Positions 15,821 through 51,307 of a DNA stretch of 64,000 nucleotides are shown here, one piece after another; the first letter of the stretch is position 1, and every line of letters begins with the position of its first letter. The translations under genes and the position numbers were made by a program. The DNA is from Candidatus Aenigmatarchaeota archaeon (GTDB lineage: Archaea; Aenigmatarchaeota; Aenigmatarchaeia; QMZP01; QMZT01). The notes beneath the pieces are model-generated. The model did not search any database and had not been told where the DNA came from. It was given only the letters and a program-made list of their open reading frames with translations. Where the stretch lies: contig JAZDFI010000007.1 in assembly GCA_043808015.1 (NCBI GenBank), positions 930-64,929 on the forward strand, given 5' to 3'.

Positions 15821-16345
15821 TTATGTGCTGGGGCATTCCCCGTGGCTCCACAGGGTTATGTTATTGCTCGCGCAGGCCGAACAATCGTTTCCGTATGTTA
15901 CGCCGTTGTCTCCGCACACAGGTAAGTATTCCATTGTACATGCCTCCGCGGCTTTCTCTTCATCCGTGCAGATGTGCCTGTAAGGAGGGCATTCTCCCCT
16001 GAAATAAGTCCATTCCTCGCACGCAAAGCCGTCCTCAAAAGTGCACATGCCGCTCTGGCTGCCATCCTCGGCAGTCACGATTTCAAGCTTTCCGCCGTTG
16101 TTGATGCAGTTCACAGAAGCGGGGTTCGCTATCTGCACGCTGTCGCCATTGCTGCAGTTCTCTTCCCATGCGCGGATGCATTTCTGCTCTGCGTCGCACC
16201 AGCTGTATCCCGCCGCGATAAGGCAGCCGTGCTCGTCCTTGTCACCGCCTATTATCTGATCATTTGCCGTCACGCAGCCGGCGACACCGACGGTTATTAT
16301 TATCAGTATCATGAACAGCCCGTAAACAGGAGTTTTCCTTTCCAT
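15821..16345 (-). CDS. Secreted lipoprotein-like protein with DUF333-like and Kazal-type inhibitor domains
   Basis: Signal/TM then GC (lipobox-like). NPASVNCINNGG...CTFEDGFACEEWTYFRGEC (DUF333-like). CTMEYLPVCGDNGVTYGNDCSACASNNITLWSHGEC is a canonical Kazal C-x-PVCG-x-DG-x-TY-x-N-x-C pattern. Confidence 0.6.
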   Translation of the reverse strand: MERKTPVYGLFMILIIITVGVAGCVTANDQIIGGDKDEHGCLIAAGYSWCDAEQKCIRAWEENCSNGDSVQIANPASVNCINNGGKLEIVTAEDGSQSGMCTFEDGFACEEWTYFRGECPPYRHICTDEEKAAEACTMEYLPVCGDNGVTYGNDCSACASNNITLWSHGECPST

Positions 16346-44509: not shown

Positions 44510-44974
44510 ATGAAAAAACCAAAAATAGCCATCAAGAATCCCCGCGATGGAAAAATCGCCGAACTAGCAAAGAAGACCGGCCACAAGGTGCTGGCAACGT
44601 GGGCCCTTGACTGCGCCGAGCGCGTATTGCCTTATTTTGAGAGCAAGTATCCGGAAGACGAACGTCCGCGGACCGCGATTGAAGCGGGCCGGGCCTGGGT
44701 CAGGACGGGTGTGTTCAGTATGGCGGTAATACGCAAGGCAGCGCTTGATTCGCATGCCGCGGCACGCGAGGCGAAGGATGATGCAGCCCACTCAGCCGCC
44801 CGCGCCGCAGGACAAGCCGTCGCGGCAGCGCACGTCCCTGCTCACGCTCTCGCCGCCGCAGCATATGCGGCCACTGTTATTCGTGACGCCGAACCAGCGG
44901 GTGACGCTGCTGTGGCCAAAGAACGGGAATGGCAGTATCAGCATTTGGTAAAACTTGGAAAAATAAAAAAATAA
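44510..44974 (+). CDS. Ala-rich all-alpha protein resembling bacterial Imm5-like putative immunity proteins
   Basis: LATWALDCAERVLPYFE...DERPRTAIEAGRAWVRT...AAHSAARAAGQAVAAAHVPAHALAAAAYAATV pattern recalled from the actinobacterial Imm-5-like family. About 68% GC, Ala-rich, atypical for this window. Confidence 0.4.
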   Translation: MKKPKIAIKNPRDGKIAELAKKTGHKVLATWALDCAERVLPYFESKYPEDERPRTAIEAGRAWVRTGVFSMAVIRKAALDSHAAAREAKDDAAHSAARAAGQAVAAAHVPAHALAAAAYAATVIRDAEPAGDAAVAKEREWQYQHLVKLGKIKK

Positions 44975-44977
44975 TTA

Positions 44978-46888
44978 TCACGCGAACTTATCGAGGTCGT
45001 CGACGTCTTCGGAAACGACCGTCGTCTTCCTGAACTTGAAGTACCAGAGGAAGACGCCTGCGACCACCACGATCACGGTTATGATGATTATCCACGTGAG
45101 GTCAATCGCTGGAGCGGCTCCGCCAGCTTCGAGCATGTCCATTTTAGCCTGCGCCTTCTGGTAGTATTCGTTCGCCTGGGCGTAGTTGCCCAGCACCAGG
45201 GCGCTTTCAGCCTTGGAAATGTCCGAGCCGATATCGCTTCTCACGGTTTCGGAAATGCTCTTGCCCGCAAGCGCGTAGGAAAGGTCTGTTATGTCCCCGG
45301 AAATGTTGTCGTAGCAGTTGAGAACCACCAGTACGCTAGCAGTCTCGCCTCCTGCCTTTATGTTTATCAGGCCCTCGTATTTTCCGGCGCCGGACGGGGT
45401 GATGGATATCTCGACTGTCTCGTAATCGCCTGCCGCGACGGAAAGATCGGAAACAGGGACGTCAATGTAGCCGCTCATATCGAGCGTCTCGAGGTACTGG
45501 TCGCCGCCTCCGGTGTCCTCCACGTCGTAGCTGAAGCCCGTGAGGCCGGCAGCGCCGCTGTTGCTGACGCGGATTTCGTGATAAACAGGATCGCCGTCTA
45601 TGCAATCCCTGGAGAGAATCATCGTCTCTTTGCTGATAGACAAACTCTTGCTGCCCGTGCATGCCTGCCCGGGTTTCATCACCGTTATTGAAACGGGTAT
45701 CGCGAGTTCGAGGCCGTCACCGGATTTGACCGTCACCTTGCCATCGACATCCGCTTTGATGTTAGGCACGTCTATGCTTATCGTCGTGGCTTCGAGCGGG
45801 CCTAAAGACGATTTACCCAGGTCGACGTAGCTGTCCTTCAGGTCGCCTGACACGGAAACTGATATGTTCGTCGAGTTCTGCCTGAGATTCCTTATTTGTA
45901 TGGTTTGCGAGAAATCTTTAGACTCGTTGACGACGGCATAAATGGAATCCGGTATGAGCTCGAAGAATTCCACTATCGAAAATTTCGCCGTCTTGGCAAG
46001 CGGGCTGAGCGTGCGGATCTCGTATTCGCCCTCGGGCCAGTTGCCCTCGGACACGAAATCGTAAGAGAACGTGTGGTCGGAAGCGACTGAAACAGAAAAA
46101 TCTTTCGCCTTTTTCCCGTCCGGGTAACGTATTTCTCCCGTTACGCTGGCGGCGCTTGACGTGCCTGTCACAACGACCTTCTCCCCGGTCCAGTATTCAG
46201 CCTTGCCGGCTTGCATGGTGAGATAGTCGCCTGAAGGGATCTCGATTCTTTTTAACGTGCTGCCATACGTTCCGGACTCGTTGACCATGAACGTGAAGTA
46301 GTATACACCCGGGTTGAGCGTGATGTTGCCGGCATAGCGGGCCTGGATGACATCGTATTCTAGCGGGCGCTCGGTCTGGTATATGCTCAGGTCCTCCTTG
46401 TATATGCTGTATTTCATCCAGGCTTTCTGGGCCATGTAGAAGAACATGTATACGGTGTTGTCCACCTTGTTCACGCCCGTGAGCGGGACTGAGACTGTCG
46501 ATATGTTAAGCGGGATGGTCTTGTTAGTCGCGCCGCTGGGTGTTATGACGTTGATATACATCTCGGTCGGGCCCGCATTGAAGAAGGGCGACGGTCCGCA
46601 GGTCGCGTTGCCGTCGCTGTTGGAGAAATAACAGAGTCCCTTGCCGTCCGTTGTTGTCGGGAAAGAGCCGAGGCCTATGCTGCCCGTATTATATACTGAC
46701 CACGTGATGCGCATCGGCTTTTCAGTCGTCTTCGGATCGACTTTTATCAGGACCGCCGAGTTGACGGAAAGCACCTTCTCGTCAGGCAGTATGATGACAT
46801 CGGGGCTGTCGGCGCGGGCAAAACCCGGCACCAGCAAAAAAGCAACGGCTAAAAGTAAAACTAACCCAAAAATCCAACCCCTTTTCAT
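44978..46888 (-). CDS. Large cell-surface (S-layer-like) glycoprotein with N-terminal signal peptide and C-terminal TM anchor
   Basis: Signal GLVLLLAVAFLLVPGFARA. Over 20 N-x-S/T sequons. C-terminal TM WIIIITVIVVVAGVFLWYF plus short cytoplasmic tail. Confidence 0.55.
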   Translation of the reverse strand: MKRGWIFGLVLLLAVAFLLVPGFARADSPDVIILPDEKVLSVNSAVLIKVDPKTTEKPMRITWSVYNTGSIGLGSFPTTTDGKGLCYFSNSDGNATCGPSPFFNAGPTEMYINVITPSGATNKTIPLNISTVSVPLTGVNKVDNTVYMFFYMAQKAWMKYSIYKEDLSIYQTERPLEYDVIQARYAGNITLNPGVYYFTFMVNESGTYGSTLKRIEIPSGDYLTMQAGKAEYWTGEKVVVTGTSSAASVTGEIRYPDGKKAKDFSVSVASDHTFSYDFVSEGNWPEGEYEIRTLSPLAKTAKFSIVEFFELIPDSIYAVVNESKDFSQTIQIRNLRQNSTNISVSVSGDLKDSYVDLGKSSLGPLEATTISIDVPNIKADVDGKVTVKSGDGLELAIPVSITVMKPGQACTGSKSLSISKETMILSRDCIDGDPVYHEIRVSNSGAAGLTGFSYDVEDTGGGDQYLETLDMSGYIDVPVSDLSVAAGDYETVEISITPSGAGKYEGLINIKAGGETASVLVVLNCYDNISGDITDLSYALAGKSISETVRSDIGSDISKAESALVLGNYAQANEYYQKAQAKMDMLEAGGAAPAIDLTWIIIITVIVVVAGVFLWYFKFRKTTVVSEDVDDLDKFA

Positions 46889-47330: not shown

Positions 47331-47396
47331 AGGCGCGCGAAAACCTGGCTAACCATCCGTTTTTAAAATTTATTCTTATCGTATTCTTTGGTGCAC

Positions 47397-48077
47397 ATGC
47401 ATACAGCACAAGATGCGTTGAAAGTCGCGAAGGATGTTTTTCTGGCGACTTACGATTTTGGGGACAGAAACCTGGATTTCGGCCTCAACGCGAACCTGAT
47501 GAGAGAACTGGGCTATAAAGGAACGCTTAGCCTGAGGCAGATGTCTTACACGCCAGAAAACCGGCTGAGAATGGGCCTGATTTTTTCCGAAGGCGAGCCG
47601 CTCGGCCTCACCCTTCTCGACAGCTATAATGACTGCGATGGCAGGACTGTACTGCGCACAGACGAAAGGGAAGCTGTTCAGGGCAGGTGCCATGAGGGAA
47701 ACTGCGACCTGGGTATTTATGCGATTACATGGATTCCCGGCGGGCAAGACTGTGGGAGTGTTTACATGGCTTCTCGCTTCCAGAAAAGCACTGTCGAATT
47801 CATCAACGGAATGTTGTTATGTCCGGATGGGAGCCTGAAAAAAATCAGCAGCTACCGCAGGACCAGCGAAACCCCGGAATGCATGGTCGATTCCGGCATG
47901 GCGCTGGACTGGACAGGCCGGGACATGAGCGCTAAAAGATTCATTGAACTCATGGACACGCAAGATCTTAGCGTGGTGGGCGATTCCAGCAAAAGGCAGC
48001 AGGAAATGTGCTTTGCCATGTCATCCATTCTAAAAGGATATTTTAACGGCAGGCCGGGCAAACCGCTGCACGAGTAA
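47397..48077 (+). CDS. Hypothetical Cys-rich protein immediately upstream of hydrogenase large subunit
   Basis: About 10 Cys (NDCDG, GRCHEGNCD, QDCGS, LLCPDG, PECMVD, EMCFAM). No NuoB/NuoC motifs. Track start 47388 is TTG; ATG at 47397. Confidence 0.4.
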   Translation: MHTAQDALKVAKDVFLATYDFGDRNLDFGLNANLMRELGYKGTLSLRQMSYTPENRLRMGLIFSEGEPLGLTLLDSYNDCDGRTVLRTDEREAVQGRCHEGNCDLGIYAITWIPGGQDCGSVYMASRFQKSTVEFINGMLLCPDGSLKKISSYRRTSETPECMVDSGMALDWTGRDMSAKRFIELMDTQDLSVVGDSSKRQQEMCFAMSSILKGYFNGRPGKPLHE

Positions 48078-48118: not shown

Positions 48119-49330
48119 ATGCATGATTTTGTTCTGCCGTTCGGGCCGCAGCATCCCGCGCTGGTCGAGCCGGCGCACATAAAGCTGCGCGTCGAGGGCG
48201 AAACGATAAAAGGGGCGGAGCTCGTCCTTGGATACAATCACAAGGGCATCGAGAAGTCGTTCGAGAACAGGCCGTGGGCGAAAGGCGTCTTTCTGAGCGA
48301 GCGCGTGTGCGGCATATGCGGCCACTACCACACGGCGTGCTACTGCCAGGGCATCGAGCAGATGCTCGGCATCGAGATTCCGGACCGCGCTAAGCACATA
48401 CGCACGCTCGTCAGCGAGCTGGAGCGCATGCATTCGCACATGCTCGCGCTGGGCCTGGTTGCATGGGAAGTGGGCCTCGATACACTGTTTCATTATCTGT
48501 TCCGCGACCGCGAGCTCGTCATGGATATGCAGGAGGCGCTTACCGGCGGACGCGTGCACTTCGCGATGAACGTGATAGGCGGCGTACGAAGGGACGTGGG
48601 TCAGGAAAACTACGGCAGGATGGCCAAAAACCTCGACGCGCTTGAAGAGCGCATGAAACATTATCTGAGCGTTTTCAGGAATGATTCTTTGATGAAAATC
48701 AGGACCAGAAACGTGGGGCATCTGTCTCGAATGAAAGCGAAGGAGCTGAACCCGGTCGGCCCGAACCTGCGCGCTTCCGGAATCGATTACGACGTGCGCG
48801 AAACCGGCTACATGGCATACAAGGACCTCAAGTTCAGGGCCGTGACCGGCGAGGGCGGCGACGCGCAGGAGCGCTGCATAGTCCGCGTGAAGGAATGCCT
48901 CGAATCGATACGCATGATCCGGCTGTCGCTGACTACTCTGACTGAAATAAAGGGCGACATATCGCTCAAGCTCCCGGCAGCCGTAAGCGTAAAAGAAGGC
49001 CTCGAAACCGTGTCGCGGGTTGAGGCACCGCGCGGCGAGCTGTTCTATTATCTGCAGTCCGCAGGCGCGAAGCCGTCGAGGGTGCGCATACGCACGCCTA
49101 CATACCAGACCTTCCACGTCCTGGAGGAAATACTGAAAGGCCACACGATATCCGACGTGCCCGTAATAGTCGCATCGCTGGATCCATGCTTCTCGTGCAC
49201 GGACAGGATGACCATAATCGACACTAAATCGCGCAAGGAGAAAATAATAACCAAGCACGAAATCCTGCACATGCGAGACGACGCACACGGAGCGCATGAA
49301 CACAGCCACGGAGGCCACAAGCATGTTTGA
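48119..49330 (+). CDS. Group 4 [NiFe]-hydrogenase large subunit (Ech/Mbh/HycE-like) with His-rich C-terminal extension
   Basis: L1 motif RVCGICGHYH (RxCGxCxxxH) and L2 motif DPCFSCTDR (DPCxxCxxR), followed by 38-aa tail MTIIDTK...HGAHEHSHGGHKHV, a putative HycI-cleaved extension. Confidence 0.8.
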   Translation: MHDFVLPFGPQHPALVEPAHIKLRVEGETIKGAELVLGYNHKGIEKSFENRPWAKGVFLSERVCGICGHYHTACYCQGIEQMLGIEIPDRAKHIRTLVSELERMHSHMLALGLVAWEVGLDTLFHYLFRDRELVMDMQEALTGGRVHFAMNVIGGVRRDVGQENYGRMAKNLDALEERMKHYLSVFRNDSLMKIRTRNVGHLSRMKAKELNPVGPNLRASGIDYDVRETGYMAYKDLKFRAVTGEGGDAQERCIVRVKECLESIRMIRLSLTTLTEIKGDISLKLPAAVSVKEGLETVSRVEAPRGELFYYLQSAGAKPSRVRIRTPTYQTFHVLEEILKGHTISDVPVIVASLDPCFSCTDRMTIIDTKSRKEKIITKHEILHMRDDAHGAHEHSHGGHKHV

Positions 49331-50249
49331 ATCGCTTTTGACGCCTCAGCTGGCGCAGAATGTTTTCAATATGCTCGTCTTTCCGGGATTCCTCGCCGCC
49401 TTCATAATCGGCTTCCTTTACATGGGCATAGTGCGCAAGGTCAGCGCCCGCATGCAGCATCGGGTCGGACCGCCGTTGTGGCAGCCGTTCTTCGACTTCT
49501 TCAAACTGCTTTCCAAGGAGAACATAACCACGCGCGACGCGACGGGCGCGCTAGCTACGCTCTGCCCGGTGGTCTCGTTCGCGTCGCTGATGACGGTCGC
49601 GCTTTTCATACCCATCGCCGGTATTCCCGGTTTGTTCAGCGTCGAACCCATATCGTTCCAGGGCAGCCTTTTTGTCGTGCTTTACTTCCTGATAATGTCT
49701 TCCGTATTTTTCGCTGTCGCCGGTTTCGCTGCCGGCAATCCTTTCGCTTCGCTCGGCAGCATACGCGAGCTGACGCAGCTGTTCGCTTACGAATTCCCCT
49801 TCGTCATTTCCCTGGTCACGCTGGGCATATTCACGGGCTTTCGTATCGTGCCGCTTTTCGCCCTGCAGCTGCCGTTCGCGTTCTTCGCATTTCTCATGGG
49901 CGTGCTGGGAAAACTCTCGCTTCCTCCGTTCCACATACCGGACGCGGAGCAGGAGATAGTCGCAGGCCCCACGACGGAATACAGCGGTCCCAGACTAGCG
50001 ATGTTCGAGCTGGCCAAAGCGGCGGGATTCTGGGTGCTGATATCGCTGGGCGCGGTCCTTTACCTCGGAGCGGACAGCCTTCTCGCCTTCGCAGTTTATT
50101 CGCTCGCGTTACTGGCGGTACTGATCGTATTCCGCGTCGTGTTCGCCAGGCTGCAGATAGCCCAGGCTTTCAGGTTTTACTGGTTCGTCGTAGGGCCGCT
50201 TGCGCTCATCGACCTCGCCAGGGTCCTGCTCGGATATTATGTTATGTAG
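49323..50249 (+). CDS. Hydrogenase membrane subunit, NuoH/HycD/EchB-like
   Basis: 8 TM helices, RKVSARMQHRVGPP...PFFDFFKLL is NuoH-family. Start taken at ATG 49323 (8-nt overlap with upstream stop). Confidence 0.7.
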   Translation: MFESLLTPQLAQNVFNMLVFPGFLAAFIIGFLYMGIVRKVSARMQHRVGPPLWQPFFDFFKLLSKENITTRDATGALATLCPVVSFASLMTVALFIPIAGIPGLFSVEPISFQGSLFVVLYFLIMSSVFFAVAGFAAGNPFASLGSIRELTQLFAYEFPFVISLVTLGIFTGFRIVPLFALQLPFAFFAFLMGVLGKLSLPPFHIPDAEQEIVAGPTTEYSGPRLAMFELAKAAGFWVLISLGAVLYLGADSLLAFAVYSLALLAVLIVFRVVFARLQIAQAFRFYWFVVGPLALIDLARVLLGYYVM

Positions 50250-50260
50250 GTGTATGTGAA

Positions 50261-50599
50261 ATGAATCTGCTACCAGAGGCGTTGCAAAGGCTTTTTTCCA
50301 GGCCTGCGACCAGGCGCTATCCGAAACAGCATGCGTCGCTAGCTCCTGGCTTCAGGGGCAAGGTGGAATGGAAAAAGGAAACGTGCATCTTCTGCATGCT
50401 CTGCGCCATAAACTGTCCCACAAACGCGATAGTCGTCGACAGGGAGCATAAGACTTGGACGATAGACGTCGGCAAGTGCATCTTCTGCGGCAAATGCCAC
50501 GACGTCTGTCCGACGAAACCGAAGTCCGTCGATAATTCGAACAAGTTCGAACTCGCCGGCCCTGACAAGGACAGGTTCAAAGAAACGCACAAGAAATAA
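50261..50599 (+). CDS. 2x[4Fe-4S] ferredoxin subunit, NuoI/HycF/EchF-like
   Basis: CIFCMLCAINCP and CIFCGKCHDVCP (two CxxCxxCxxxCP motifs). Only the last 112 codons of the track ORF 49478-50599. Confidence 0.75.
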   Translation: MNLLPEALQRLFSRPATRRYPKQHASLAPGFRGKVEWKKETCIFCMLCAINCPTNAIVVDREHKTWTIDVGKCIFCGKCHDVCPTKPKSVDNSNKFELAGPDKDRFKETHKK

Positions 50600-51307
50600 T
50601 TATCCATCTTTATGTTTGCCGTTTTTCCCACCAGAGAAAGCGCTCCCTATTCTACTGATGGCGCTTGACTGGCGCTCGAATTCCTTCTCCAGCATGGTGC
50701 CGAGCATCTTCTTTTTGTAAAGGCTGCTTATGATTTCCGCTACCTTGTCGCCAGCGGCTCTGGCCTCGCTGCCGAGGGGCTGGCCGAACTCGTTGCTTTT
50801 CTTCTGTATGCCGATTATGGTGACCGGGCTTTTCACCGGCTGGTCGGCATTGTAAAGGCGCAGGAAAATGCTGAGCGGCGTGATGTGCGTCGACATGGCC
50901 GTGTCGCTTAACTCGTAGTCCCTTATCACTTTAAGGCTTCCGGGCCTCCTGCCGAAATCCGCGGCGTCGACGATTATGAGAAGCGTGGGGGTGAACGCCT
51001 TCAGCTCGCGTACGTGATCTTCGGGCATCGCCGTCTTTATGAAAAGGAAATATTCGTCTTTGCCTATCAGTTTCTTTAGTTTTTCAGCTACGTACGGGCC
51101 GACGCCATCGTCGCCTTTCAGGTCGTTGCCAACGCCGAGAATGGCGAAGCGCTCCTTGCGCAGCTTATCCTCCTTGAAATTCCTGTATATATCGTTTATG
51201 GACTCGATGAATTTCTTGTCTTCGGCTGGCTTGCCGTCCTTCGCAGGCGCCTTAGCGTCCTTAGAACCCCTGTGAAAAATGTTCCTGCCTGGCTTCGGGA
51301 ACTTCAT
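50600..51307 (-). CDS. hycI: Hydrogenase maturation endopeptidase (HycI/HyaD family) with N-terminal Lys-rich extension
   Basis: ILGVGNDLKGDDGVG (conserved GxGNxLxxDDGxG) and downstream D/H residues. Confidence 0.7.
   Translation of the reverse strand: MKFPKPGRNIFHRGSKDAKAPAKDGKPAEDKKFIESINDIYRNFKEDKLRKERFAILGVGNDLKGDDGVGPYVAEKLKKLIGKDEYFLFIKTAMPEDHVRELKAFTPTLLIIVDAADFGRRPGSLKVIRDYELSDTAMSTHITPLSIFLRLYNADQPVKSPVTIIGIQKKSNEFGQPLGSEARAAGDKVAEIISSLYKKKMLGTMLEKEFERQSSAISRIGSAFSGGKNGKHKDG

Follow-up and report, generated by a model that had tools for sequence, protein, structure and literature searches.

A group 4 [NiFe]-hydrogenase locus of an Aenigmatarchaeota archaeon as the probable distal half of a split Mbh-type operon

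The 64,000-nucleotide stretch analysed here (the window), from contig JAZDFI010000007.1 of an Aenigmatarchaeota archaeon (DPANN), encodes at positions 48119-51307 the large subunit of a group 4 [NiFe]-hydrogenase, a membrane subunit, a ferredoxin-type subunit and a convergent HycI-type maturation protease, with neither a small subunit nor a NuoC-like subunit. From sequence comparison, this set is probably (about 0.85) the distal half, mbhL-mbhM-mbhN with its protease gene, of an Mbh-type, Mrp-linked group 4 hydrogenase whose genes are split between two loci. The truncated locus is read as a split operon because relatives keep mbhD-K at a second locus and the two halves co-vary. On this reading the system is an ordinary Mbh-type hydrogenase whose gene order is split in a lineage-specific way.

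Gene content of the hydrogenase locus

The large subunit gene mbhL (48119..49330, + strand) encodes 403 amino acids (aa) matching PF00346 (Complex1_49kDa; 3.1e-62, 210.5 bits against a cut-off of 24) and PF00374 (NiFeSe_Hases; 7.3e-11, 42.1 bits against 25.8). Both Ni-Fe ligand motifs named in the original prediction, which was made from the DNA sequence of the window, were recovered, RVCGICG at residues 62-68 and DPCFSCTDR at residues 355-363, and the four Ni-Fe cysteines are invariant in an alignment with 118 relatives. The C-terminal tail had been described as His-rich and 38 aa long; its end is indeed His-rich, but its length is 40 aa counted after R363 (residues 364-403). Every one of the 118 aligned relatives has a C-terminal extension, and a His-rich end is seen only in the window and those relatives closest to it. 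In a ranking of solved structures, Pyrococcus furiosus MbhL (6CFW_L, 3.9e-73) came first, followed by HycE (7Z0S_E, 1.2e-71). Additional cysteines in MbhL (TACYCQG) were considered as a built-in cluster and rejected, since their positions vary among relatives, including those with contiguous operons.

Downstream lie mbhM (49296..50249, +), encoding a NuoH-like membrane subunit of 317 aa from the first ATG (PF00146 NADHdh, 5.2e-57), and mbhN (50258..50599, +), encoding a NuoI-like 2x[4Fe-4S] ferredoxin-type subunit of 113 aa (Fer4 family, 1.5e-13) with exactly eight cysteines in two CxxCxxCxxxCP motifs. These matches agree with the predicted NuoH-like and NuoI-like pair, and the order of the two genes after the large subunit is that of Mbh-type hydrogenases. 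Because relatives of MbhM are only 286-303 aa long, the true start of mbhM may be the ATG at 49323. The MbhM homologue in L001, one of the related loci denoted here by L numbers, occupies the equivalent position and is 71% identical, and mbhN is kept 3' of mbhM in L001, L003, L005, L006, L009 and L010.

The protease gene (50600..51307, -) encodes 235 aa with a HycI match (PF01750, 6.8e-17, residues 72-194) and is convergent to mbhN, which it abuts without a spacer, as the original prediction had placed it. The locus thus encodes both an MbhL tail and a putative cognate HycI-type endopeptidase, from which cleavage of the tail is predicted. The protease carries a Lys-rich N-terminal extension of ~70 aa ahead of the Pfam domain; its close relatives are 227-264 aa long, and those of more distant split-clade loci 148-158 aa.

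Absence of the small subunit and NuoC-like subunit from the window

The reported lack of a small-subunit or NuoC-like gene in the 64 kb was confirmed by concordant results from motif searches, two sets of tblastn queries and a Pfam survey. Six-frame regular-expression searches of the window returned no match to GCPP or GxCxxxGG, and five isolated matches to CxxCxxE or CCxxE, none of them in a small-subunit context. The earlier search had used CCxxE, which is the complex-I form; group 4 small subunits carry CNGCxxE in the small-subunit alignment, and this form is likewise not found in the window. With tblastn, NuoA, NuoB and NuoC of the related Bathyarchaeota operon gave no match in the window, and MbhD-K of an Aenigmatarchaeota locus, at E<=1e-5 and at E<=1e-3, matched it only at the four known genes. 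The Pfam survey, covering ~70 of 80 open reading frames (ORFs) of the window chosen greedily, found no Oxidored_q6, Complex1_30kDa, Mrp or hyp genes among archaeal housekeeping genes that include RFC, CysRS, CDC48, ribosomal proteins, SecY and pentose-phosphate enzymes. Thus none of MbhJ, MbhK and the Mrp-derived MbhD-H was found in the 64-kb window.

An ORF between the tRNA-binding protein gene and mbhL (47388-48077, +; 229 aa from TTG or 226 aa from the ATG at 47397) was considered as a divergent substitute for NuoB or NuoC. This candidate was rejected, as it has no Pfam match and no homologue in any related locus retrieved, and relatives do without it. The gap that holds it measures ~790 bp in the window and the equivalent gap in L001 ~200 bp; the ORF may be a lineage-specific insertion or a non-gene.

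The truncated locus in related genomes

No database record matched the window's MbhL exactly; its closest database relatives belong to Aenigmatarchaeota, with 60-94% identity. The window is syntenic over more than 20 kb with L001, a 1.1 Mb contig of "Candidatus Aenigmarchaeota archaeon MFD04408.bin.2.45", in the common order TtuA, RIO kinase, S5, L30, L15, SecY, a ~635-aa surface protein, a tRNA-binding protein and the hydrogenase genes, followed by HycI, SpoIIM, L16, RpiB, epimerase, transaldolase and UDP-glucose dehydrogenase. The same L-M-N set with hycI, lacking J and K, recurs in L001, L003, L005, L006, L009 and L010 (MbhL identity 48-74%), of which L010 is from a Micrarchaeota metagenome-assembled genome (MAG). 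The large-subunit phylogeny that the original prediction proposed was carried out as a neighbour-joining tree, in which the truncated loci form one clade and a sister clade, represented by L008, has the canonical Mbh operon.

In L008 the gene order is MnhE-MrpF-MnhG-MbhD-MbhE-MnhB-Oxidored_q2-antiporter-...-Oxidored_q6-Complex1_30kDa-large subunit-NuoH, and contiguous D..K-L-M-N operons followed by a convergent HycI gene are found in Hadarchaeota, other Aenigmatarchaeota and one Nanoarchaeota MAG. The window genes are identified as mbhL, mbhM and mbhN because L008 and other contiguous operons carry this D..K-L-M-N order, and since the convergent protease gene also lies 3' of mbhN in contiguous operons, it is taken as an ancestral feature of the operon type. 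The Bathyarchaeota locus L007 has the order NuoA-B-C-D-H-I. Mbh-type clusters are rearranged in other DPANN or archaeal lineages as well: L055 and L057 end after mbhJ, L060 (CP070662.1) has ~2.7 kb inserted between mbhK and mbhL, and in L058 and L067 mbhJ is displaced from mbhK-L.

A second locus carries mbhD-K in relatives

A search with the L008 small subunit as query found P0189, an MbhJ labelled Aenigmarchaeota, which sits in L011 (GCA_012975005.1), an assembly that also carries the truncated locus L003. The order in L011 is MbhD-E-MnhB-Oxidored_q2-Proton_antipo_M-MbhI-Oxidored_q6-Complex1_30kDa, followed by a convergent Memo gene. Neither the matches listed for the L008 query nor the best 120 matches to P0189 included the MbhJ of the 1.1 Mb contig. 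A scan of one genome per GTDB species, with an alignment of the P0189-type small-subunit family as query, recovered it on CAVSBQ010000002.1 contig_22876 (L019; 1,105,251 bp), the identical contig to L001, where one strand encodes MbhJ near 718.5 kb and, ~328 kb away, MbhL near 1,046.6 kb. This MbhJ is intact, and true loss of the small subunit in the window's subclade was rejected once the scan had placed mbhJ on this contig. The L019 locus encodes MbhD (PF13244), MbhE (PF20501), MnhB (PF04039), Oxidored_q2 (PF00420), Proton_antipo_M (PF00361), Oxidored_q6 and Complex1_30kDa, and is flanked by prefoldin and Memo genes like that of L011. A third example, L036 (CAYYKJ010000003.1), comes from the assembly of L005.

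Both halves were therefore present in three of the three related genomes that could be paired, with a NuoC-like PF00329 protein encoded 3' of MbhJ in L011, L019 and L036, so that the genome-wide small-subunit search recommended by the original prediction, run on related genomes, found mbhJ and mbhK in every pair. More widely, mbhD..K sets lacking L, M and N in the 4-10 kb downstream occur in L011-L015, L018-L023 and L036 (given as 13 loci), the set of L020 being 5'-truncated at mbhG. L016 and L017 carry mbhD..K genes too, on contigs that end within ~1.5 kb of mbhJ, and stand apart from this count.

The split-locus MbhJ sequences form one clade in the MbhJ tree, mirroring the MbhL tree, and when the three paired genomes are compared with one another, the pairwise identities of the large subunit and of MbhJ run in parallel (70/68, 61/67 and 62/70%). 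The two loci sum to the subunits of one operon without any duplication, and the boundary between mbhK and mbhL is the exact point of the break. In the small-subunit alignment the MbhJ cluster ligands C43, C46, C110 and C140 are invariant, as are the Ni-Fe cysteines of MbhL, indicating that both halves are under purifying selection. The original prediction had left a choice between a gene located elsewhere and a reduced or novel arrangement. The former was borne out in relatives, which have mbhJ and mbhK at the second locus, and the latter found no support, as in these relatives a small subunit lies elsewhere and co-varies with the locus in both trees and identities, the very outcome that the original prediction had named as its refutation.

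In L036 (8243-10399) the MbhJ sequence is broken by a 535-aa intein that includes a LAGLIDADG homing endonuclease and sits precisely at the first of the cysteines that ligate the cluster (HLGAGG|C...intein...VVKN|CNGCSIE); Pfam places Intein_splicing and LAGLIDADG_3 inside Oxidored_q6. The genome concerned is that of L005, in which a 1781-aa T2SSE-type ATPase gene with two inteins (L005:11325-16670) adjoins the hydrogenase locus.

Proposed origin and function

The arrangement would have arisen when an ancestral mbh(A-C)DEFGHIJKLMN operon was cut between mbhK and mbhL in the window's lineage, so placing the proximal half, ordered prefoldin-mbhDEFGHIJK-Memo, far from the distal one. This half would supply the Mrp-like small membrane subunits MbhD-G, the antiporter-like MbhH, MbhI, the small subunit MbhJ, with four cysteines for the proximal [4Fe-4S] cluster, and the NuoC-like MbhK. 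By analogy with the structure and biochemistry of P. furiosus Mbh, the products of the two transcription units would assemble in trans into one active complex.

Electrons from reduced ferredoxin, supplied for example by pyruvate:ferredoxin oxidoreductase, would in such a complex move along the two MbhN clusters and on via the MbhJ cluster to reach the Ni-Fe site of MbhL, where protons would be converted to H2, while MbhM and the Mrp-like membrane arm would couple H2 formation to ion translocation. The HycI-type protease would trim the C-terminal tail of MbhL once the metal is in place. Homology to P. furiosus Mbh thus suggests ferredoxin-dependent H2 evolution coupled to ion translocation, and pyruvate:ferredoxin oxidoreductase genes near the hydrogenase locus in L003 and L009 are consistent with a fermentative source of ferredoxin.

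Matches to MnhE, MrpF and MnhG, the counterparts of MbhA-C, lie directly upstream of mbhD in contiguous operons, and at split loci prefoldin precedes mbhD; tblastn with the L008 MnhE, MrpF and MnhG gave no match in the window, in L011-L023 or in L036. In the split lineage mbhA-C may lie elsewhere in the genome or may have been lost. It is conceivable, though somewhat doubtful, that the lineage has a streamlined two-locus Mbh without MbhA-C altogether, an 11-subunit MbhD-N enzyme in which transcription of the catalytic L-M-N and protease unit apart from the membrane and small-subunit unit would permit independent control of the catalytic module. Such an enzyme would represent, within a reduced DPANN genome, a naturally occurring minimal form of the Mbh/complex-I ancestor, and, if mbhA-C prove absent genome-wide, a natural system in which to ask which Mrp-derived subunits are dispensable.

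Alternative explanations

Several observations weigh against the reading as one Mbh-type enzyme encoded at two loci. A second mbhD-K locus in the window's own genome is deduced from relatives whose MbhL is 59-74% identical; two of the three genome pairings depend on MAG binning, physical linkage being seen on the 1.1 Mb contig only; and since mbhA-C (MrpE/F/G) were found neither in the window nor alongside the split proximal loci, the complex may fall short of a full canonical Mbh. The lack of small-subunit and NuoC-like genes in 64 kb, together with the missing MbhJ of the 1.1 Mb contig among the best 120 matches to P0189, would fit a true reduction, in which both subunits were lost and MbhL-M-N works as a minimal three-subunit enzyme, pairs with an unrelated electron-transfer partner or is decaying. 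This is improbable given the intact MbhJ that the genome scan found on that contig and the second locus in all three checkable relatives, and decay in particular is argued against by the conservation of the Ni-Fe ligands, of the putatively cleavable tail and of its dedicated protease. In the Mbh/complex I architecture (6CFW) the MbhN clusters would be too far from the Ni-Fe site without the MbhJ cluster, and the earlier claim that the large subunit needs a small subunit to pass electrons is upheld.

The two halves could instead be functionally independent, with mbhD-K forming an Mrp-like antiporter or an Ehr-like module without hydrogenase and mbhLMN serving another partner. Their separate transcription units, the absence of mbhA-C nearby and the fluid Mbh gene order of DPANN, as in L055, L057 and L060, speak for this. 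To our knowledge, however, MbhJ and MbhK have no role beyond docking a NuoD/MbhL-type subunit, MbhJ retains all four cluster cysteines, the halves are exactly complementary and co-inherited in one clade, and P0004 was the only relative from the 1.1 Mb contig among the matches listed for the window's large subunit, so that independence is very unlikely. Least probable of all, to the point of being negligible, is an assembly or binning artefact in which a contiguous operon has been truncated by misassembly or a contig break. The source is probably a MAG, and such assemblies can be chimeric, but unrelated genes rather than mbhK precede mbhL in six independent assemblies from different studies, one of them the 1.1 Mb contig. 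The junction SecY-surface protein-(tRNA_bind)-mbhL recurs in L001 and L003, the surface protein stands directly before mbhL in L005, the complementary mbhK-Memo junction is conserved in L011 and L019, and there is no break in composition at the locus.

Comparison with known systems

The closest characterised counterpart is P. furiosus Mbh (MbhA-N; 6CFW; HydDB group 4d type), which supplies the best structure match to MbhL and shares the L-M-N order, while the second locus of relatives has the Mbh subunit families in Mbh order and a hydrogenase protease is tied to the locus here. The differences are the two distant loci with the break between mbhK and mbhL, the split proximal locus without adjoining mbhA-C, and the host, a small-genome DPANN archaeon rather than a member of Thermococcales. 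Assignment to subgroup 4d is probable by proxy, from the best PDB match (MbhL) and the Mbh-type gene content of relatives. Escherichia coli hydrogenase 3 (HycE/HycG/HycD/HycF with HycI; 7Z0S) is the source of the second-best structure match and, like the present system, pairs a HycI-type endopeptidase with a C-terminal extension that follows CxxR and is cleavable, a property predicted for the present tail. In contrast to E. coli, the large subunit here is not fused at its N-terminus to a NuoC-like part, there is no formate dehydrogenase partner, and the membrane arm would be Mrp-type rather than HycC/HycD only. The contiguous operons of Aenigmatarchaeota, Hadarchaeota and Nanoarchaeota (L008, L026-L035 and L042) share the subunit families and the convergent hycI after mbhN, with large subunits 42-48% identical to that of the window, but are unbroken and have mbhA-C upstream, whereas the window's clade is split.

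According to passages of Li et al. 2021 (PMC8407114), non-thermal 'Ca. Aenigmarchaeota' MAGs carry membrane-bound group 4 hydrogenases. These match the present system in phylum and enzyme class, and the passages drawn on here contain neither subunit content nor a split organisation. Literature searches returned reports of group 4 hydrogenases in Aenigmarchaeota and no description of their subunit content or of a split operon. Present results indicate that an 'incomplete' hydrogenase locus in these reduced DPANN genomes reflects operon fragmentation and not loss of function, so that in metabolic reconstruction a genome-wide look is advisable before an enzyme is called defective or novel. They also support the view, by analogy with Mbh, that non-thermal Aenigmatarchaeota may be able to shed ferredoxin electrons as H2, possibly conserving energy through an Mbh-type complex.

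Other features of the window

The surface protein upstream of the hydrogenase genes (44978-46888, -) is 636 aa long, has no Pfam domain, and carries a signal peptide and a C-terminal transmembrane helix, so it may be secreted or anchored; L001, L003 and L005 keep it in the position just before the hydrogenase locus. Between SecY and this protein, the window encodes a 154-aa Imm5-like putative immunity protein (44510-44974, +; PF21805, 1.5e-42), whereas in L001 and L003 no such gene is called at the equivalent position. For a DPANN archaeon, a family of polymorphic-toxin immunity proteins is unexpected. At 15821-16345 (-) lies a gene for a 174-aa protein that combines DUF333 with a Kazal-type serine protease inhibitor domain, which is unusual for an archaeon.

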